A stretch of 64,000 bases of DNA from a virus (Duplodnaviria > Caudoviricetes), in the IMG/VR virus record IMGVR_UViG_3300028534_000024, positions 1 through 64,000 of that record. One strand, written 5' to 3'. The notes below the pieces were generated by a model, which was given only the letters and a program-made list of their open reading frames with translations, did no database searches and had not been told where the DNA came from. Every line of letters starts with the position of its first letter. Position 1 is the stretch's first letter. The position numbers and the translations under genes are program-made. Below, piece after piece: positions 7,390-62,972 of this stretch.

Positions 7390-8190
7390 TTACATTTGAA
7401 TATAACCACCAAATACTAATTTTGATAGATAAGGTTGTATCATTGATTCATAGTAATCTCTAACAGATGGATCCAATATAACCTCATCTTTATCTATACT
7501 TGTCACTACTTTTGACTTTTTTATTATTTTTGTAGTCGTATTAATATCTCTTAAATAGGATAAATGTGAACTTCTTGCAATGTATTTATATAGAGAATGT
7601 ATTTTATCTTTATTTATCATATTTAATATTTTAATTTTACTATTTTGTTTATTATATGGTGGAATGTATCCATTAAGTCCACCAATTAACGCTCTCTGAA
7701 TAATATATGTTTGAAAATATGTATACTCATCGTTATTTGTACATATATGTTTACCATTATGTATACTTTTAATTATTTTATCGAATTCTTTAAATATACA
7801 TTCAGTATTACAATTAAGAGAACATCTCATGAATATAGCTATATCTTCTGGGAAGTGTATTAAGAACTTATCGTTACCATCTTTATCATATAATAATTCT
7901 TTAGGTATCAATGGTGGTATAGTTGGTTGTGATATTTTAGCTATTTTAACTTTATGTTCATACGCTATATTTAAAATATAATCTAAAGATTCATACTTCA
8001 TAAATGGTTCATTAAATACACTCTCCGTATGTTTAACCGATAGTGTACCTACAACTTTTATGTCTTTAATATGTGAATAGCACCATATACTATATTTAAT
8101 TGATTTATAAATAGGGTATAATACAATACCATCCCCATCGTCTACTAATAAAAATTTATGAAAAGTTTTATATAAAATTATATCTGACAT
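7390..8190 (-). CDS. Hypothetical protein (266 aa)
   Basis: ORF with RBS (GAGGA) behind a consensus promoter. Confidence 0.7.
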   Translation of the reverse strand: MSDIILYKTFHKFLLVDDGDGIVLYPIYKSIKYSIWCYSHIKDIKVVGTLSVKHTESVFNEPFMKYESLDYILNIAYEHKVKIAKISQPTIPPLIPKELLYDKDGNDKFLIHFPEDIAIFMRCSLNCNTECIFKEFDKIIKSIHNGKHICTNNDEYTYFQTYIIQRALIGGLNGYIPPYNKQNSKIKILNMINKDKIHSLYKYIARSSHLSYLRDINTTTKIIKKSKVVTSIDKDEVILDPSVRDYYESMIQPYLSKLVFGGYIQM

Positions 8191-8219: not shown

Positions 8220-8249
8220 ATTATATCATACTTTATAGTCATTTGTCAA
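8220..8249 (-). promoter_or_regulatory. sigma70-type promoter TTGACA-N18-TATAAT (TGn extended -10)
   Basis: Consensus hexamers read directly. Confidence 0.75.
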
Positions 8250-8346: not shown

Positions 8347-8440
8347 ATAGGACTATCGTCCTATATATTGTGAACCTTTCGGTTCGTATTCGATATTATA
8401 CCATAAAAGTTATGTTTTGTCAAGTCTTTTTTGAAATTTC
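8347..8440 (-). repeat. Partial copy A of the promoter + twin-hairpin element
   Basis: TTGACA-N17-TATAAT then GAACC-GAAA-GGTTC and ATAGGAC-GATA-GTCCTAT; matches copies at 34.3, 44.5 and 62.5 kb. Confidence 0.9.
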
Positions 8441-10739: not shown

Positions 10740-11153
10740 ATGCACATGGAAAAAGAAGAAATATTTAATATAGTAAAAGAGGTAGTTGCTGAGCTTGTAC
10801 CACAGATTGAACCTCAAGAAGAACCTGAAGTTGAACCTGAAGTTGAACCTCAAGAAGAACCTCAAGAAGAACCTGAAGTTGAACCTGAAGTTGAACCTCA
10901 AGATGAACCTCAAGAAGAACCTGAAGTTGAACCTCAAGAAGAACCTGAAGTTGAACCTCAAGGAGAGCCAAAAAGTGACACTAATTCGGACGCCAAATCA
11001 TTTAATGATACCTTAACTTCTATTGAAAATAGTTTAGCAAATGATTCCGATGAACTAACAGAAGACGAAAAACAACTTATAGAATTTATTATGTTAAACT
11101 ATGATAAATTAGAAAGTAAGGTCGATAAATTAATTAATAATCAAGGAGATTAA
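10740..11153 (+). CDS. Acidic EPEV/EPQE-repeat protein, probable scaffold (likely start 10746)
   Basis: Lies between protease and capsid genes; low-complexity acidic linker plus helical C-terminus. Confidence 0.6.
   Translation: MHMEKEEIFNIVKEVVAELVPQIEPQEEPEVEPEVEPQEEPQEEPEVEPEVEPQDEPQEEPEVEPQEEPEVEPQGEPKSDTNSDAKSFNDTLTSIENSLANDSDELTEDEKQLIEFIMLNYDKLESKVDKLINNQGD
10805..10965 (+). repeat. 12-nt unit coding repeat (GAACCTGAAGTT / GAACCTCAAGAA)
   Basis: Read directly. Confidence 0.9.
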
Positions 11154-12326
11154 ATGGCTTTAGATACAATCAAAGCATTACAAGATAAAATCGCTGCTCT
11201 TGAAACAAGAATGGGCGAAATGTCAGAAAGAAAACCAAAAGGTGAAATTCAGAGACCTGAGATATCACAAAAAGAAGTAAGAAATAAGGCTTCTAATCTT
11301 TATCTATTATCTAGAATTAGAGATGTAGCTCCTCAAAGTCTTGCAACATACAATGATGTTAAAGAACTAGCAACTCGTGCTATGGTACCTGCGGACACAC
11401 CTGATTGGCTAGCAGAAGAGTTTAGTAAAGATATTTATGAAAGAATGTCTCTTATTGCTAATGTTGAGAGTCTATTCCCTAAATATACAATACCTAGTAA
11501 TGTAGAGGCACTTAGTATACCTCAAAAAACATCTAAAACAAAAGCTTATCTGATTCAGCCAGCAGCTGACGCTATTCAATCAGCTATTACTGCTGCTAAA
11601 GTAACATTTAGAGCTAAAAGATTGGTAACACTTGCTACTCTTACAGATCAAGCCGATGATGAAACAGTTGTAATGCTTACAGAAATGATTAAAAATGATA
11701 TAGCAGAATCACTTGTTCTTGCTATGGAAAATGCAATCATAAATGGAGATGAAACTGCTGGAGATACAAACATTAACGGTTCAACTGTAGGTAATGATGC
11801 AACTGATCAACTAAGAACATTTAATGGACTTAGAAAAATTACAATGGATAATGATAATACTGTTGACTTTGGTGGGGCATTAGATTATGCTACTATAGCA
11901 GGTATGAGAAAACTAATGGGTAAAGATGGTATTAACCAATCTGAACTTGTTTATATTGTATCGCCTTCAACTTATCATCAACTTGTTCTACTCCCAGAAG
12001 TATTAACAGTTGACAAATATGGCTCTAAGGCAACTGTTGTTACAGGTGAAGTAGCAAAAATAGGAGCAATTCCTGTTGTTGTATCAGAATTTGTACCAGA
12101 AGATTTGGATGCTACTGGTGTATATGCAGATGGTGGAGATAAGACAGTTATTATTCTTGCAAAAAGAAAATATTTCGCTGTAGCTGATAGAGGAATGGCT
12201 GGATTTGAAAGAGATAGAAATGTTATTTCTGCAACTAACATTTATGTTGGACATAGGGATGTAGATTTCAATCCACTTCTACCAGATAAGGAAATATCTG
12301 TTCTAGGATTCAATGTAGCTACTTAA
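11154..12326 (+). CDS. Major capsid protein, HK97 fold
   Basis: N-terminal coiled coil, EEFSKDIYE, AIINGD, YIVSPSTY..L, IPVVVSEFVP and GHRDVD motifs; position in head module. Confidence 0.9.
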   Translation: MALDTIKALQDKIAALETRMGEMSERKPKGEIQRPEISQKEVRNKASNLYLLSRIRDVAPQSLATYNDVKELATRAMVPADTPDWLAEEFSKDIYERMSLIANVESLFPKYTIPSNVEALSIPQKTSKTKAYLIQPAADAIQSAITAAKVTFRAKRLVTLATLTDQADDETVVMLTEMIKNDIAESLVLAMENAIINGDETAGDTNINGSTVGNDATDQLRTFNGLRKITMDNDNTVDFGGALDYATIAGMRKLMGKDGINQSELVYIVSPSTYHQLVLLPEVLTVDKYGSKATVVTGEVAKIGAIPVVVSEFVPEDLDATGVYADGGDKTVIILAKRKYFAVADRGMAGFERDRNVISATNIYVGHRDVDFNPLLPDKEISVLGFNVAT

Positions 12327-34022: not shown

Positions 34023-34241
34023 TCAATCTTTAATGTTATCAATCTTATCTTTCATAAGTTTAAATAATTCAGTATTTGAAATAGTTGAAAGTTCTTTTCT
34101 TGTATTAGCTGTTACATCAGAAATAACTTTGCATATTGAATATAAAGTAGCCTCACTTAATAATTCAAGTCCGACTAATGATTTTGTAAGTTCATCTTGA
34201 AACTTTTTCTTTGCTTTTATATTTAATTTATTTGATTGCAT
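34023..34241 (-). CDS. Hypothetical protein
   Basis: AAGGA RBS, downstream of a consensus promoter. Confidence 0.65.
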   Translation of the reverse strand: MQSNKLNIKAKKKFQDELTKSLVGLELLSEATLYSICKVISDVTANTRKELSTISNTELFKLMKDKIDNIKD

Positions 34242-34270: not shown

Positions 34271-34300
34271 ATTATATCATATATAGTGTATATTTGTCAA
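34271..34300 (-). promoter_or_regulatory. sigma70-type promoter TTGACA-N18-TATAAT
   Basis: Consensus hexamers. Confidence 0.75.
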
Positions 34301-34309
34301 GTATACTAT

Positions 34310-34600
34310 ATAAATAAACCTATATAGTTATCTTATAAAGTAAGGACTATCGTCCTATATATTGGGAACCTTTCGGTTCAGACTGATATTATACCATAAA
34401 AGTTATGTTTTGTCAAGTCTTTTTTGAAATTTATATAATATTTTTCAGGAAACTTTTGTAACAAAAGAAAATTGAAATTAATTTATATTATTATATAAAG
34501 TTTCCTAACAAGATATACCATTTAAAGCAACAGAATGGTACTTTAAAAGGCTTTTCTTTTAGTTTAGGTATCATAGGCTACCTAAGATGTAAAACCTTTC
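34310..34600 (-). repeat. ~290-bp dispersed repeat, copy B (palindromic block + promoter + twin hairpin)
   Basis: Near-identical to 44509-44797; inverted copy at 62269-62558. Confidence 0.95.
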
Positions 34601-34615
34601 ATATTTGCTTTTAAA

Positions 34616-35650
34616 TTATTTATCAATTCTTATTCCGTGATACACAGGAAACCTAGGAATACCCCCATCAGTAAATTCGAAGAACCTTACTTCAGCTAAC
34701 TGTCCAATATACTCATTTTTGTTTTTAAGTATTTCTTTTCTCTCATCTATTGATACTTTCATATTACATTTAAAAGTTGTATCATTGATTTTACATATAA
34801 CTGTACCTTGCGTAGTATCTGCTTCATTAGGAATAACATCAACTATTTCGTAAGTCTCATCTATAAAGTCTTTATATTTAAGAAGCGATTTGGATCTTTT
34901 ATTGAACTCATAATGTGTATTATCAGTTCTGACTATCGTCCCTTCATATCCTTGTGATAGGAATTGTTTATGCCAACCTTTAAGTTCATCTAATGAGTTA
35001 ACTTTATATGTAGGTACTATTTCTATATTATTTTTATATATACATAAATTATAAAGCTCATCATATCTTTCGGAGAATGTTCCTTTAATAGAAGGCATAT
35101 CATACACATAGTATTTAATCTTTTCTGTTTCATTTTCTTGATATTTTTTAACTCTTGAGATTATTTCTTGGAATGTCATTCCGTGACAGTATAATTCACC
35201 ATCAAGTATATCTTCATCAGTTAAGAAAGACAAATCGATATGTTCCACTGTTGTAACTTCTCTATTCTTTCTTGAAAGTTTGTTTTTATTTGTCCCTACC
35301 ATTCTTACACCATCTAGTTTAGGTTGTACATAACAATGAAACTCAATAGTCTTCTCATTAAACTTATTTGCTAGCATAGGCATAAGTGATGTATGCGATT
35401 TAGCTTCTTCAAGTGTTTCAAAGTACCCTTCTTTTAATTTCTTAGTAATAAGAGCTTCCATTTGAAGTATTGATTGTTCATCAGCAGTTGTTTCATTAGC
35501 TCGACCTATATTCTTAGCTTTACACTCTCTGATATTAGTTACTAATTTACCATCAAGTAAACCTGATTCTTGATAAAGAAGATGTCCTTTAGTGAACACT
35601 CTCAATATCCTTATTTTGTTCTTACTATCTTTTTTATATAATGTTTTCAT
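34616..35650 (-). CDS. ATP-dependent DNA ligase with N-terminal WGR-like domain
   Basis: PMLA, QPKLDGVR, LDGELY, EGTIVR, LLKYK and PRFP motifs. Confidence 0.92.
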   Translation of the reverse strand: MKTLYKKDSKNKIRILRVFTKGHLLYQESGLLDGKLVTNIRECKAKNIGRANETTADEQSILQMEALITKKLKEGYFETLEEAKSHTSLMPMLANKFNEKTIEFHCYVQPKLDGVRMVGTNKNKLSRKNREVTTVEHIDLSFLTDEDILDGELYCHGMTFQEIISRVKKYQENETEKIKYYVYDMPSIKGTFSERYDELYNLCIYKNNIEIVPTYKVNSLDELKGWHKQFLSQGYEGTIVRTDNTHYEFNKRSKSLLKYKDFIDETYEIVDVIPNEADTTQGTVICKINDTTFKCNMKVSIDERKEILKNKNEYIGQLAEVRFFEFTDGGIPRFPVYHGIRIDK

Positions 35651-43968: not shown

Positions 43969-44451
43969 CTATCTTGTAATTTGTAGAAAATCATCTATTA
44001 GGTCTGATGCTAATGGATAATTTCTTTTAAATAAAGAAGTAGCATATATATCTGAACATATTATTGTAGTATTACCATTTGCTTTATTTAATTTAATGAG
44101 GTTTGATAATACTTTATCTGAATAATTTGTAGAGTTAGCTAATTCTTCACCTACATCATAAATATACAATACATTACTTTTAACTGTACCATTTCCACCA
44201 TCAAAGACAGCCGAGAAGTATTTAGGATAGTCAATACCATATATATCACTAGGGCTTTTTGTTTCATCCTCTATAAGCCTATCTAAAATGGCCCCTTTAT
44301 CTCCATGTAGAAACACTGTCTTATTTCCTTCACTCAATTCTATAGCCAACCTATTAAATTTAGCTGGAGAATATAAATGTAAATCCTCCCATTTAGTATC
44401 TATAAGCGTCAATGGGATATTTTTTAATTGTAGTACTTGTTTATTATCCAT
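43969..44451 (-). CDS. Degenerate DnaC/IstB-like P-loop protein
   Basis: VFLHGDKG (eroded Walker A), LYIYDVG (Walker B-like), TIICS. Confidence 0.45.
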   Translation of the reverse strand: MDNKQVLQLKNIPLTLIDTKWEDLHLYSPAKFNRLAIELSEGNKTVFLHGDKGAILDRLIEDETKSPSDIYGIDYPKYFSAVFDGGNGTVKSNVLYIYDVGEELANSTNYSDKVLSNLIKLNKANGNTTIICSDIYATSLFKRNYPLASDLIDDFLQITR

Positions 44452-44508
44452 TTTCTTCCTTGTATTTATATATTCTATTATATAGGTATAATATCATGAA
44501 TCTCTATA

Positions 44509-44797
44509 TAAATAAACCTATATAGTTATCTTATAAAGTAAGGACTATCGTCCTATATATTGGGAACCTTTCGGTTCAGACTGATATTATACCATAAAAG
44601 TTATGTTTTGTCAAGTCTTTTTTGAAATTTATATAATATTTTTCAGGAAACTTTTGTAGCAAAAGAAAATTGAAATTAATTTATATTACTATATAAAGTT
44701 TCCTGACAAGATACACCATTTAAAGCAACAGAATGGTACTTTAAAAGGCTTTTCTTTTAGTTTAGGTATCGTAGGTTATCTAAGATGTAAAACCTTT
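44509..44797 (-). repeat. ~290-bp dispersed repeat, copy C
   Basis: Direct repeat of 34310-34600 with a few substitutions. Confidence 0.95.
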
Positions 44798-44806
44798 TAA
44801 ATCATC

Positions 44807-45025
44807 TTATACTTCAATATAATATACTTCATCTTTTATTAACTTTTTAAAATCTTCATATTCATCATAGGTATCATCCATTTGCTCTAACAGATATCCT
44901 AAGTTATATCGAGCTGTACCATCTAAGTCATTTACCATTATAGGCGATGTATTCCGTAGTAAATCTAGTGCTTTCCTAGATAATACTTGATTAATTACTG
45001 CTAGTTTTACTATTATGTATTTCAT
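44807..45025 (-). CDS. Hypothetical protein
   Basis: Coupled to the polA stop, AAGGA RBS. Confidence 0.6.
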   Translation of the reverse strand: MKYIIVKLAVINQVLSRKALDLLRNTSPIMVNDLDGTARYNLGYLLEQMDDTYDEYEDFKKLIKDEVYYIEV

Positions 45026-45931
45026 TATTTATCCTTTTTAAAGTCTTCTTCTAATTTATTTAAGAAATCTTTTATTTCACCCAAACTTGCATTATTTGCT
45101 AAAGTTTCTTGTTGTTTCCATGAAAAACCAAAATCAAGTTCAGCTTTATTATGTACTAATTGATCTTCTTTATAGTCTTTTATCATTTCTGATATAACTA
45201 TTTCGTTAGCTTTTTGTACTATTATAGGATCGTTCTTAACTTGAAGATATACAGCATCGTGTATAGTTAAGAATATATACATATTATCCTCTAAGTTTTC
45301 ATCTTCAATTCTTTTTTGAATCCTATTAATAGCTTTCATCATAAGTTGTCCTGATAATCCTTGAATTAATGCATTACAATAAGATCTTTCAGCTTTTTCT
45401 ACTGATATCTGTTCCTCACCTAGTAATTCATGACATCTTATTATTAATCCATGAGGTGTTCTTCCTACTCCTTTATTATCTCTAGCTTCTTTCAGATACT
45501 TGTCATAGTATTTTTGTACACCACTATAAAGTTTGTGGTAATTATCTACAATAATCTTAGCCTCATCTAAAGAAATATTTAAAGAATTTGCTACAGAATG
45601 TTCAGTTGCTCCGTAAGCAAGTCCAAAAGTTACGGCTTTAGACAACTGTCTTAAATCTGGAGCTTCTTCTTTAATTATAAAGGATTCCTCAACTGTTATA
45701 GTATTACCGTAAGGTAATCCTCTTTCCTTTAATTCATCAGCAAAGTAGCTGGCTGTATTAAAAGAATGCGAGTCATGTCCTTCAAGGATTACTTTACATT
45801 TTGCATCATCTCTTGTTTCTTCCGCACCTACTCTATCCTCCAAAGCATTAAAATCAGCTCCCGCAAATAGGTAATTATCTTCAGCAATACAAACGTTTTT
45901 AATAAGTTTAGCATAGGTTGAACCTGAAGGC
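45025..45931 (-). CDS. polA: Family A DNA polymerase, exon 2 (motifs A, B, C)
   Basis: PSGSTYAKLIK..GADFNALEDR, RQLSKAVTFGLAYG, TIHDAVY; reading frame is open upstream of the track start to 45931. Confidence 0.9.
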
Positions 45932-46802
45932 CAGGGTGTTATACAAGCGTGTAGTGATATAACAACCTATACTATATTATAAGGTCTATCTATTACTTTA
46001 TATTTATCTAAAAGATAATTAACATGTAATGCTGCCTCTTTTTCGGTATTAAACCGTTTCTGTCCTATAGTTTTATTATTGAGTCTTAGTGATCCTATCC
46101 ATTTCTGTCTACTCTTATCATAGCTAACATTATGATAGTTTGAGGATTTACCAATCTTTAATCCCAAAGTAGGTAAATTATACTCCTTAAGTCCTGTTGT
46201 TAAGGCATGTATTTTATTTTCACTGGATGTACACCATTCTAAATTATCTAGTCTATTATTTAATTTATTCCCATCTTTATGATTGACTTCTAATTGTTCA
46301 CTATTATCTACTGGATTAAATGTTAACATAACTAATCTATGAACTAAATAATTTTTATTCCTAATTGAGACATCTAAATAACCACTATTTAATAAATGTG
46401 GTCGTAGGTACGGTACTTGTATCCCTTTAATTCTACCATAAGTTGATATTAAATATCTAGTATCAATAGGGCATTCTTTCCATTGTTCAATAATATCCTC
46501 CTTTAATTTTTATTTAATTGCTTGTATCACTCACAGTCTCCTATGAGATCGGACTATATCTTCACCCTTAAATAAGGGGATCACCACTTCGACGTCACTA
46601 CTCGTCTACTCCTAAAAGGATAGTCTCTGAACCTTTACCTTATCTCGCACTTAGGTACTTGGCTGCTGATTGTCTCTATTATATGTATTTTTAGGGGCCG
46701 TTAAGTCATTTCTGCTTAATATCCTAACATATACCTAACAAGATGTTCCAGCAATTCGATGATTTTACTATATCATATTGCTATGATATGACCCACCATT
46801 CT
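45932..46802 (-). mobile_element. Group I intron in the DNA polymerase gene
   Basis: P1 ACCU/GGGU, P10 GAAUGGU with exon GCCUUC, core elements GAATTGCTGGAA, AATCAGCAG, TTCAGAGACT, GAAGATATAGTCC; splicing restores NLQNL-PSG. Confidence 0.9.
45967..46491 (-). CDS. Intron-encoded NUMOD4-HNH-AP2-like endonuclease, predicted ATT start (174 aa)
   Basis: Frame open from an in-frame TAA through EQWKEC..YLISTYGRIK into VNHKDGNKLNNRLDNLEW; AAGGAGG lies 5 nt before ATT. Confidence 0.8.
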   Translation of the reverse strand: MEQWKECPIDTRYLISTYGRIKGIQVPYLRPHLLNSGYLDVSIRNKNYLVHRLVMLTFNPVDNSEQLEVNHKDGNKLNNRLDNLEWCTSSENKIHALTTGLKEYNLPTLGLKIGKSSNYHNVSYDKSRQKWIGSLRLNNKTIGQKRFNTEKEAALHVNYLLDKYKVIDRPYNIV

Positions 46803-48463
46803 AGGTTTTGTAAGTTTGGATTTGAACTACTAAGTCTTCCAGACACTGTACCATGAAGTTTAAAGTCTCCATGTACTCTATATATGCCTTTATCATCTTG
46901 AACAGAAAGTTCATCAAATGCTTTTAAGAATGTACCTGCTACTTTAGACGCATCAGTTATATCTTGAAGTAGTTTTAATATTCTTAATTTATGTTCGTCT
47001 TGTTCCTGTTCCCTATATTGTTTCATGACATCTTTACCTACTGATGGATTACCAGTTTTCTTAGATGTTTCAAGAACAGGATAACCTAAAGTATCAATAA
47101 GAAGCATCACTTTATGGTTCGTAGAGTTAGGATTAAATTCTACATCAAAATCATCCACTGTTTTCTGTTTAACATGTGATGAGTTATATTTAAACATAGC
47201 ATTATATTTTAAATCAGTTACTACTTCTTTAATCTCATCAAAACTTCTTAACTCTTCAAGTGACTTTTCTATCAGACTATTAAGTTCCTCTTGTGCTTCT
47301 GTAAGTTTCTCTTTATCAATTATAAGTCCTTGATACTTCATCTTAATAAGAGTCTTAAGGGATGGTTTATAATAATTAGTAAAGATATCTAATTGATCTT
47401 CCTCTATTATCTTCTTAGAATACTTATTATACGCTTCAAATGTACCTGTAACATCATACACATTATATGTACCAACATCTTTAAATGAATACTCTAATAA
47501 CCTATCCTGTTTGATATTATTATCATATTCTCCATATATATCAAATAGTTCATCTTTAAGGCCTAAACTGACTCTTTGTAGCCCATTAACACAAAGGTAT
47601 TTTAGGTGCATTACATCAGTGATATTCCAATTATTAACAATATCATTAAGTCTTTTTCGTTCATAAACAGAAACATCCATCAAATCCCTTAATATGAATG
47701 GAACATCAAATATAGCGTTATACCCTAATTGCTCGCCTTTATACATAAGATAGAAATTATATAATTCTTCTCTGATCTCCTCATATTCTGATGAATATTC
47801 TGGACAAGTAGCAAAAGCATATCCTTTAGTTGTACTTGTAGCTAACGCAACTGTGATAATCCTATCTCTTCCTAAAACTAAACCTGTTGTTTCGATATCC
47901 ATAGCTAGTTTAGGTTCTTTAATAAGCCTATCAAGTACATCTCTTGTTTCTTCTAGATTATCTATAAGTTTTACATCAATCTTATCAAGGATATTGACTG
48001 TATCTTTATAAGTACCATTAAGTACACTATCTAAACATTCTACTGATTTATTTAGCTCAGTTAATTTCTGAGGTTGTGAGAATAACATAAAGAAGTTAAG
48101 AACAGGTACTATCTTATATCCATCTAGTTCATTTATACCATCTAAAGCTTTTCCTAAAGATGCCATAAAGTGTTTTGATCCTGTTGCAAACTTAAAGAAA
48201 TCTGGGTTGGTGGTTGCAATAGTAAGCACGCCATTATTCTCAGCTATCTCTTTCAATTCTTTAACATTTTCAGTATAGTGTACTTTTTTATGTTTTCCTG
48301 TTTTCGTGTCCAAGCTTAAAGCATAATATAAAACTGATTGTTTATTACTATCAGAAAGTTTAGCCTGATAATTAATCATAAGTTTGGTAATATTTGAATG
48401 ATTCATCAAATTAGGATTACCAACAATTATAACTTTTGGATTGTTTGATTTATTAATTAACAT
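46803..48463 (-). CDS. polA: Family A DNA polymerase, exon 1 (possible UDG-like N-domain, 3'-5' exonuclease)
   Basis: MDIETTGL, YNAIFD, YNVYDV and GTVSGRLSSSNPNLQN. Confidence 0.92.
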
Positions 48464-61974: not shown

Positions 61975-62178
61975 TCATAAAATCTCCTTATCTTTTGGTG
62001 TTAATCTTTCAGTTATGATCGAAGGACATATATAACCACCCATCACGATAGCTTCAATGAGTTGTTTGATCTCTTTAGATGATAATGATGATAGATTTAA
62101 TAACTTTTTACCTCTCTTAGGCGATAATGTTAGACTATCTCTTGTGAGTTCTGATAATTTATATTTTCTAAACTCCAT
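61975..62178 (-). CDS. Hypothetical protein
   Basis: AAGGA RBS behind a consensus promoter. Confidence 0.6.
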   Translation of the reverse strand: MEFRKYKLSELTRDSLTLSPKRGKKLLNLSSLSSKEIKQLIEAIVMGGYICPSIITERLTPKDKEIL

Positions 62179-62206: not shown

Positions 62207-62236
62207 ATTATATCATAGTAGATATAAATTTGTCAA
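62207..62236 (-). promoter_or_regulatory. sigma70-type promoter TTGACA-N18-TATAAT
   Basis: Consensus hexamers. Confidence 0.75.
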
Positions 62237-62268
62237 GATGTAAGGATAAATAATTTAAAAGAAAATAT

Positions 62269-62558
62269 GAAAGGTTTTACCCCTAAGGCAACCTATGATA
62301 CCTAAATGAAAAGAAAAGCCTTTTAAGATACCATTATGTTGCTTTAAATGGTATATCTTGTCAGAAAACTTTATATAATAATATAAATTAATTTCAATTT
62401 TCTTTTGTTACAAAAGTTTCCTGAAAATACTATATAAATTTCAAGAAATTTACATTTTACTCTTGACAAATCTTTAATAGTGTGGTATAATATCAGTCTG
62501 AACCGAAAGGTTCCCAATATATAGACCGTAGGTCTTAGCTTATAAGATAACTATATAG
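62269..62558 (+). repeat. ~290-bp dispersed repeat, copy D (inverted)
   Basis: Reverse complement of copies B/C; promoter 62463-62491 points right. Confidence 0.92.
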
Positions 62559-62570
62559 CTATTTTATAGA

Positions 62571-62972
62571 CTATATTTTACCCCATGTTTTATTATACCC
62601 ATACTTATGTATGATTCTATATACAGATGCTACAGATATATCATAGTCTTTTGCAAGTTGCCTTGATGATATACCATTTAATATAAATTCCTCAATTATA
62701 CTTTTATGAAGTACTTTAGGTATTCTTTTACGGATACATTTAAGTTTGTTATTGTATATTTTAAATTGCTTATGTACATCATATTTATTTACCTCTTCTT
62801 GTGTAGCATAGTAGAATTTGTAAAGTCCATCCACCCAAACAATAGGAGCAACATTATTACATACGCTTATATATTCGTTATCATTACTTACTACTAATAT
62901 CCCATATCCATTATCGTAGGCTTTTTGTGCTTCCTCTATTGTTAATTCTTTTCTATTTTTAAAGTTTTTCAT
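62571..62972 (-). CDS. Protein with C-terminal HTH
   Basis: GISSRQLAKDYDISVASVYRII. Confidence 0.7.
   Translation of the reverse strand: MKNFKNRKELTIEEAQKAYDNGYGILVVSNDNEYISVCNNVAPIVWVDGLYKFYYATQEEVNKYDVHKQFKIYNNKLKCIRKRIPKVLHKSIIEEFILNGISSRQLAKDYDISVASVYRIIHKYGYNKTWGKI

Follow-up and report, generated by a model that had tools for sequence, protein, structure and literature searches.

The closest described counterparts of the element reported here are the PeSLs (promoter-early stem-loops) of T4-type phages RB49/phi1, PST, and nt-1 (Arbiol et al. 2010, PMC2839356; Comeau et al. 2014, PMC4122927), in each of which a sigma-70 early promoter is combined with a stem-loop. PeSL copies recombine, form chimeras, and flank indels (PMC2839356, PMC4122927). 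Stem-loops at the 5' end are also known to stabilize mRNAs, for instance, those of E. coli ompA and papA and of the B. subtilis aprE leader (works cited in PMC3997798, references 93 to 95 and 109), and the stem-loop in the 5' untranslated region of the Helicobacter (H. pylori) vacA mRNA (PMC4843948).

The DNA analyzed here (the window) corresponds to the initial 64 kb of one 73,349-bp contig whose ends overlap. A promoter and twin-hairpin cassette is present in five near-identical copies (A to E) in this genome, A to D inside the window and E beyond its end. By its architecture, the cassette is a variant of the PeSL-like promoter/5'-hairpin cassettes. Both are dispersed intergenic elements consisting of a strong sigma-70-type promoter, an AT-rich upstream tract, and an adjacent conserved stem-loop, and both occur as chimeric, recombining copies with edges at sites of gene gain or loss between close relatives (here in one clear case). 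PeSLs, however, are found in T4-type myoviruses, by the dozen and in hyperplastic ORFan regions, whereas the ~73-kb genome studied here is that of a siphovirus, and its copies, only five in number, head large essential blocks (replication and packaging) as well as the ORFan block. Unlike a PeSL, the present cassette extends over ~300 bp with an extra upstream module and has two hairpins, both located downstream of the –10 element and predicted to be transcribed; the first hairpin (HP1) is invariant, and GGGG/CCCC stems are absent. A further difference is that one copy is inverted, so that a 9.3-kb block is flanked by a perfect inverted repeat of 117 bp. A stem-loop that serves as a terminator or attenuator of upstream transcription, as in PeSLs, may have a counterpart in the second hairpin of copies B and C, which is weakly terminator-like. 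The 5' stabilizer stem-loops are similar in that a small stable hairpin lies a few nucleotides from the predicted 5' end of a long mRNA, but they are single copy and rely on structure alone, whereas here an invariant sequence, a second hairpin (HP2), and a linker are repeated.

Genome setting

The genome is that of a siphovirus-type tailed phage, with a 1714-aa tape-measure protein (the largest ORF), a portal protein, and a large terminase. Its replication set consists of PolA, a DnaB-type helicase, RNR, an ATP-dependent ligase, a flap endonuclease, an SbcCD-like nuclease, and ThyX; a phage RNA polymerase was not found in the genome. PolA and the portal protein are <32% identical to those of any isolate, PolA resembling N4-like phages at only 27 to 31%, and isolated phages gave no nucleotide match to 30 to 40 kb of the window or to the cassette. 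As far as sequence comparison can tell, this is a phage without a close isolated relative. The source metagenome is of the epibiont/hydrothermal vent type, and the nearest named homologue of the ligase is from uncultured Sulfurovum, which is a hint at the host rather than proof.

Genes from 30.1 kb round via the contig ends to 8.2 kb run leftward, and the copies are spread along this block. Copy A heads a leftward block with a 266-aa gene and the large terminase; copy C (after PolA) heads the helicase/RNR/ligase block, copy B (after the ligase) the flap-endonuclease block, and copy E the 9.3-kb early block of small, mostly uncharacterized genes. Copy D lies at the distal end of the E block, facing back into the block.

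Several other features of the genome were observed. The noncoding region at 2100 to 2830 contains a GC-rich array with a 12/13-nt period (2100-2250, five 25-bp units), three 23-bp direct repeats (2297-2375), and repeats of 105 to 135 bp (2544-2830), and these arrays may represent a replication origin or a packaging signal. A perfect TTGACA-N17-TATAAT promoter at 2000-1972 (minus strand) is followed by ~930 nt without a long ORF on that strand and then by gene 62-1033. In the head-gene region, a 137-aa ORF (10740-11153) includes fourteen in-frame 12-nt tandem repeats of the EPEV/EPQE type (10753-11002, plus strand). Two ORFs (46781-48463 and 45025-45843, minus strand; 45025 to 48463 overall) code for the family-A DNA polymerase, and the 120-aa HNH_3 plus AP2 endonuclease gene between them (45967-46329) looks like a free-standing homing endonuclease; related strain L046 has ~1 kb of different sequence at the PolA split point. 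An N6/N4 DNA methyltransferase (genome positions 68435-69118, minus strand) appears to be split; the match of its 111-aa ORF to the Pfam model is limited to the C-terminal half, and a further ORF, of 66 aa, is located upstream.

Architecture of the cassette

Every copy has a perfect TTGACA-N17-TGnTATAAT promoter (TGG extension at A to D) with a 12/12 hexamer match, and most copies carry a conserved A-rich tract, AAATTTCAAAAAAG, upstream of it. HP1 (GAACC-GAAA-GGTTC) starts 8 to 9 nt past the –10 element and is followed by a 9-nt linker, (A/C)CAATATAT, and then by HP2, which also has a 5-bp stem; HP2 is AGGAC-GATA-GTCCT in A to C versus AGACC-GTA-GGTCT in D, with pairing retained. The initial annotation had described this arrangement, including the change of HP2 in D, at four positions, and all four copies read as it described them. 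Its total, however, was one short: a covariance model built on all known copies recovered exactly five genome-wide, the fifth lying past the end of the window. The HP1 14-mer, GAACCGAAAGGTTC, occurs 4 times in the window versus 0.14 expected, a count reached in 0/100 shuffles. Perfect TTGACA-N17/18-TATAAT sites number only nine in the whole 73-kb genome, namely, the five cassette copies, three N18 promoters beside A, B, and D, and the one at 2000. The other four perfect promoters have no hairpins, so promoter function as such does not require them.

Copy A (8348-8423, minus strand; 123.7 bits with the covariance model) has its –35 element at 8423-8418, its –10 element at 8400-8395, HP1 at 8385-8372, and HP2 at 8361-8348. 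A perfect N18 promoter (8220-8249, minus strand) lies 174 nt downstream of the A promoter, just before gene 7390-8190. Copy B (34306-34416, minus strand; 131 bits) has the corresponding elements at 34416-34411, 34393-34388, 34379-34366, and 34356-34343, followed by an AT-rich tail to 34306, and here too a perfect N18 promoter (34271-34300, minus strand) stands before the next gene, which encodes 72 aa (34023-34241). In copy C (44504-44614, minus strand), the elements are located at 44614-44609, 44591-44586, 44577-44564, and 44554-44541, and the tail is followed by gene 43969-44451. Copy D (62453-62569) is on the plus strand, with the –35 element at 62463-62468, the –10 element at 62486-62491, HP1 at 62500-62513, and HP2 at 62523-62535. 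Copy E (genome positions 71,946-71,840, minus strand) mirrors D, the two forming a 117-bp perfect inverted repeat (genome positions 71956-71840 at E) that spans the promoter, both hairpins, and part of the tail.

Four of the five copies are codirectional with the genes behind them and lie 133 to 200 nt upstream of the start codon. The exception is D, which runs into the 3' end of a convergent 133-aa gene (62571-62972), as the initial annotation had noticed; its tail abuts the stop codon of this gene. Separate N18 promoters had been proposed at A, B, and D, and all three are perfect; the one at D (62207-62236, minus strand), however, is divergent from the cassette and upstream of it rather than downstream, and drives gene 61975-62178. 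In C and E, no 12/12 consensus promoter is present before the next start codon, ~133 to 135 nt downstream, although weaker –10-like elements are. The 133-aa protein has a weak resolvase-type HTH at its C terminus (Pfam HTH_7, E value of 7.5e-5, narrowly failing the cutoff) and shares the N-terminal motif KRKELT-EEAQKA--GY with a 501-aa protein encoded two genes upstream (genome positions 63937-65442, minus strand).

The tail that follows the hairpins (~100 nt) is ~85% A+T, with repeated TATAG units, and carries 11- to 13-nt indels; the A-type tail is unrelated to those of the other copies. No conserved terminator (GC hairpin plus U-tract) was found behind the hairpins in the aligned copies. 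The run after HP2 has 3 to 5 U in 8 nt and differs between copies, and HP2 was flagged as weakly terminator-like only in B and C, with a U-tract that is not conserved. Downstream of the tail, at 44480-44506 and at genome positions 71790-71830, GATTC-N-TATAAT/TATTAT-like elements recur together with TATAG repeats; three tandem ATAGATTCT-TATAAT units are found at 2090-2200 of L051, a distant relative described below. The GATTC-N-TATAAT-like elements may represent a second, nonconsensus promoter class or a regulator-binding array.

Conservation in related strains and distant relatives

One metagenome was scanned for a –10 element with HP1, yielding seven true copies, all on short contigs from the same sample. 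Comparison with the genome by blastn placed six of them at orthologous loci (L031 at A, L045 at B, L030 and L046 at C, L037 at D, and L034 at E), and the L028 copy is in a context absent from the genome under study. The coding DNA flanking these copies is 77 to 85% identical to that of the genome. Since L037 represents the orthologous D locus, the orphan, convergent layout of D is conserved.

The five genome copies and the seven copies from related strains, together representing at least two to three strains, were combined in a 12-copy alignment, in which the number of variable columns was 0/6 in the –35 element, 0/6 in the –10 element, 0/14 in HP1, and 1/9 in the linker, compared with 11/17 in the spacer, 5/9 in the discriminator, and 32/36 in the tail. 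HP2 takes the forms AGGAC/GTCCT or AGACC/GGTCT, with GATA or GTA loops in varied combinations. Covariation, which the initial annotation had suggested looking for in related phages, was found in HP2: two pairs are changed on both sides, 98% of cells are paired, 0/500 shuffles reach the score, and slid controls collapse. Judged from this alignment, it is effectively one independent double compensatory event that would have been spread by conversion, and HP2 is broken in the L028 copy. In 11/12 copies, the RNA fold of minimum energy is the twin hairpin (z of –1.5 to –4.7); DNA folding is equally significant on either strand (z of –2.6 to –3.0).

In distant phages with a ligase that is ~60% identical, the cassette is missing after the ligase, and a consensus promoter with a single start-proximal hairpin is found just after PolA, which is the site of copy C. 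The hairpin of L056, GAACCC-CGTTA-GGGTTC, lies 3 nt past the –10 element and matches the covariance model with an E value of 9e-5; that of L051 has an 8-bp stem and a C-GATA-G loop and is borderline against the model. Because these phages keep the promoter and one hairpin, a hairpin at the predicted transcript start is a widely conserved feature, whereas the twin form and its invariance are specific to the present lineage. HP1 with the linker was not found elsewhere in IMG/VR, where an HP2-based pattern gave chance hits only, and no cassette was found at twenty ligase-bearing loci with 50% identity or less. Rfam yielded no family at gathering scores over the whole window, and at an E value of ≤5 the B cassette gave only a chance tmRNA fragment; a tRNA/tmRNA search found none.

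Recombination among the copies

The element is larger than the ~70 nt given in the initial annotation. In B, C, and D, the full repeat extends over ~300 to 320 bp, including a module of ~183 nt upstream of the promoter, and B and C have ~300 to 350 bp in common at 93 to 97% identity. The module of B (34442-34624, minus strand) contains several hairpins, starts within the final codons of the ligase gene, and is common to C and D; no convincing hairpin with a U-tract, in either direction, was found when the module was folded as a possible canonical terminator. The module of D (62245-62427, plus strand) is inverted relative to those of B and C (44640-44811, minus strand, in C), and its left edge carries GATAAATAA. 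The same sequence forms the last codons and the stop codon of the ligase ORF at B, which argues that the D module was copied from the B locus. Since this module is B/C-like and the promoter and hairpins are E-like, D is a chimera. The D locus repeats the order found at B (end of a gene, cassette, N18 promoter, following gene), except that its ~320-bp cassette is flipped, and copy D is best read as a cassette flipped in place at a B-like site or as a product of chimeric copying thereof.

Signs of exchange are also present at the other loci. The discriminator AGTCT and a C after HP1 are common to B to E in this genome, whereas the related strains have GATAC and an A; because each group shares its own discriminator and post-HP1 base, the copies appear to undergo concerted evolution within genomes. 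Spacer types, HP2 stems, and loops are reassorted among loci. As judged from these comparisons, the copies have been homogenized and moved by homologous recombination. A cassette edge also coincides with a difference in gene content between strains. Strain L030 lacks exactly the 72-aa gene 44807-45025 (minus strand), which sits between PolA and cassette C and is present here and in L046; the 5' edge of the C module is the breakpoint, and the junction lies between short direct repeats (TTTAAAAAGG/TTTAAAAGG), one of which constitutes the first bases of the module. This is one clear case in a small sample. An extra gene module between two copies in a relative had also been considered and was dropped, because the same PolA region is represented in both L030 and L046, which are two different strains.

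The D and E promoters face each other across the 9.3-kb block of small early genes. Their 117-bp inverted pair offers a ready substrate for inversion of the segment, and either orientation would leave one driving and one orphan copy. No inversion isomer of the D-E block was found in the contigs of four DNA runs aligned to 60 to 73 kb, a weak test because contigs break at repeats. In that segment, one joint on opposite strands (2245/11825) and variants at 11870-11884 were attributed to paralogous B/C contigs placed on D/E and were rejected.

A predicted 5' leader and its alternatives

The reading that we favor, to which we give roughly an even chance (~50%), is that of a dispersed promoter cassette of the PeSL type that gives its transcript a cis-acting stem-loop leader at the 5' end. 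The A-rich tract, TTGACA, 17-bp spacer, and TGnTATAAT constitute a near-ideal host-type sigma-70 promoter. Transcription usually starts ~7 nt after the –10 element, and this distance places the predicted 5' end 0 to 4 nt before HP1. The 5' end of the transcript would then consist of two small stable hairpins joined by the 9-nt linker, which would act in cis as a 5'-terminal leader on long transcripts from the cassette promoter, most probably by protecting them from decay that depends on the 5' end (RppH with RNase E or RNase J). The strict invariance of HP1 and the linker suggests that they are also a binding site for some factor. A cis-acting leader is favored over a discrete RNA because no conserved terminator is present, the tail is variable, and C and E have no intervening 12/12 promoter. 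Several observations fit the leader less well. D lacks an ORF to serve, yet a related strain retains it; with a second perfect promoter behind A and B, mere expression of the next gene does not require that of the cassette; the invariance of HP1 and the linker exceeds the need of a purely structural 5' cap; with the L056 hairpin only 3 nt after the –10 element, a standard start would fall inside the stem; and the hairpins fold as readily in DNA, on either strand, with effectively one compensatory event behind HP2.

It is unlikely, though with several points in its favor, that the hairpins act at the level of DNA, whether in an operator at which a phage repressor would bind over +1 to +40, in the form of mini-hairpins (extruded or single-strand), or, in concert with the AT-rich tail, in an R-loop replication origin. 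HP1 is a perfect 14-bp palindrome that sits where repressors block initiation, and the C-G-closed G(N)nA pattern that makes very stable DNA mini-hairpins is matched by all cassette loops. The equal significance of DNA and RNA folding on both strands, the TATAG-rich tail, the L056 hairpin beginning 3 nt after the –10 element, and an orphan copy that would need no ORF are likewise compatible with such an element. However, the arms of HP2 changed in step, and 13- or 14-bp geometry is tolerated within one genome, which points to base pairing rather than to one dimeric protein, and the palindrome spacing is not kept in L051 and L056. In N4-type hairpin promoters, a DNA hairpin is recognized by the phage virion RNA polymerase, whereas no phage RNA polymerase was found here. 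Transcription-activated (R-loop) origins include T4 oriF/oriG and the T7 primary origin, but a 73-kb genome with five origins, all of them joined to a perfect promoter, would not be parsimonious, and the iteron arrays at 2100-2375 are a better origin candidate. The same arrays at 2.1 to 2.4 kb weigh against a replication primer RNA, which the cassettes may produce and which was among the initial proposals.

A bolder reading takes HP1-linker-HP2 as a new phage RNA device, either for factor-independent (put-like) or protein-assisted reprogramming of host RNA polymerase at every major unit or as a short, abundant decoy RNA made from five promoters to titrate a host defense or RNA-decay protein; the inverted D would then be kept because the RNA itself is the product. 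We regard this as improbable.

The initial annotation had argued for a standalone RNA of ~50 to 70 nt. In a broader form, a twin-hairpin RNA of ~50 to 100 nt would act in trans, for example, as a decoy, and at D would be antisense to the 3' end of the 133-aa HTH gene, much as lambda OOP is an antisense RNA against cII. The orphan D, which runs into a convergent gene and is conserved in L037, speaks most strongly for a role that does not depend on a downstream ORF; the perfect N18 promoters after A and B, the sequence invariance of HP1 and the linker (as expected of a protein-binding RNA), and the weakly terminator-like HP2 of B and C agree with it. What an independent small RNA gene would have beyond a promoter, a defined and conserved 3' end, is absent from the cassette: no terminator is conserved, 3 to 5 U occur in the 8 nt after HP2, and the tail is the least conserved segment (32/36 columns variable). 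In C and E, moreover, the interval from the cassette to the gene lacks a 12/12 consensus promoter. Distant relatives L051 and L056 retain a promoter with one hairpin where the same operon begins, and D is accounted for by a B-like cassette that was flipped in place or copied chimerically. Rfam gave no match even at a permissive threshold. An RNA anti-CRISPR or solitary CRISPR-repeat mimic was dropped from consideration because HP1 was found in no CRISPR-like array: no GAACCGAAAGGTTC arrays at 35- to 65-nt spacing were present in 185,579 species genomes, from which the host is possibly absent, and the three hits were unrelated tandem repeats. Overall, a standalone RNA is quite unlikely.

Also of low probability is a cis-acting processive antitermination signal for the long leftward units, whether nut/boxB-like with a phage protein or HK022 put-like on its own. 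The lambda nut site consists of boxA and boxB, the latter a hairpin with a GNRA-like loop that is bound by the arginine-rich N protein, and HK022 put is a ~65- to 70-nt RNA with two long stem-loops that acts on RNA polymerase in cis. The cassette resembles nut in that a small hairpin, HP1, with a 5-bp stem and a GNRA (GAAA) loop, would be formed in nascent RNA near early promoters, and it resembles put in having two adjacent stem-loops. It stands directly downstream of strong promoters that head codirectional units of 5 to 10 kb, and its invariance is compatible with binding of RNA polymerase or a protein. On the other hand, there is little for such a signal to override. Only one canonical intrinsic terminator is found between leftward genes (72249-72231, just upstream of E), and terminator-like sites in the region of 30 to 46 kb number 4 versus 3.7 expected. 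No N, Q, or other antiterminator family was detected among 40 proteins scanned, no arginine-rich N-like peptide among the early-block proteins, and no boxA-like element was seen. In L056, CGTTA takes the place of the GAAA loop, and L051 and L056 have one hairpin rather than two. The 5-bp stems are far shorter than those of put, with no match to an Rfam sequence or model, and there are five copies here, each with its own promoter, rather than two as in nut and put. The near absence of terminators, the lack of an N/Q-type protein or boxA, and the loss of the GAAA loop in L056 make antitermination less likely, the boxB-like role first proposed for the hairpins included.

That the hairpins are functionless passengers of a promoter-bearing repeat kept uniform by gene conversion is very unlikely, for although concerted evolution is evident (AGTCT/C in B to E versus GATAC/A in related strains) and HP2 is broken in L028, conversion should homogenize the spacer, discriminator, and tail equally, and these vary whereas HP1 and the linker (1/9) hardly do, within and between strains; in addition, HP2 changed by compensation, and a start-proximal hairpin with a different sequence persists in distant relatives.

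Implications for phage transcription

In the PeSLs, repeats combining a promoter and a stem-loop organize transcription and serve as recombination seams, and the present cassette would extend this idea to an uncultured hydrothermal-vent siphovirus without a close isolated relative. As the hairpins are predicted to be transcribed and are doubled and strictly conserved, they constitute a compact candidate for a 5'-end RNA signal that may stabilize the RNA, modify the polymerase, or bind a protein, in a host group whose RNA biology is barely known.
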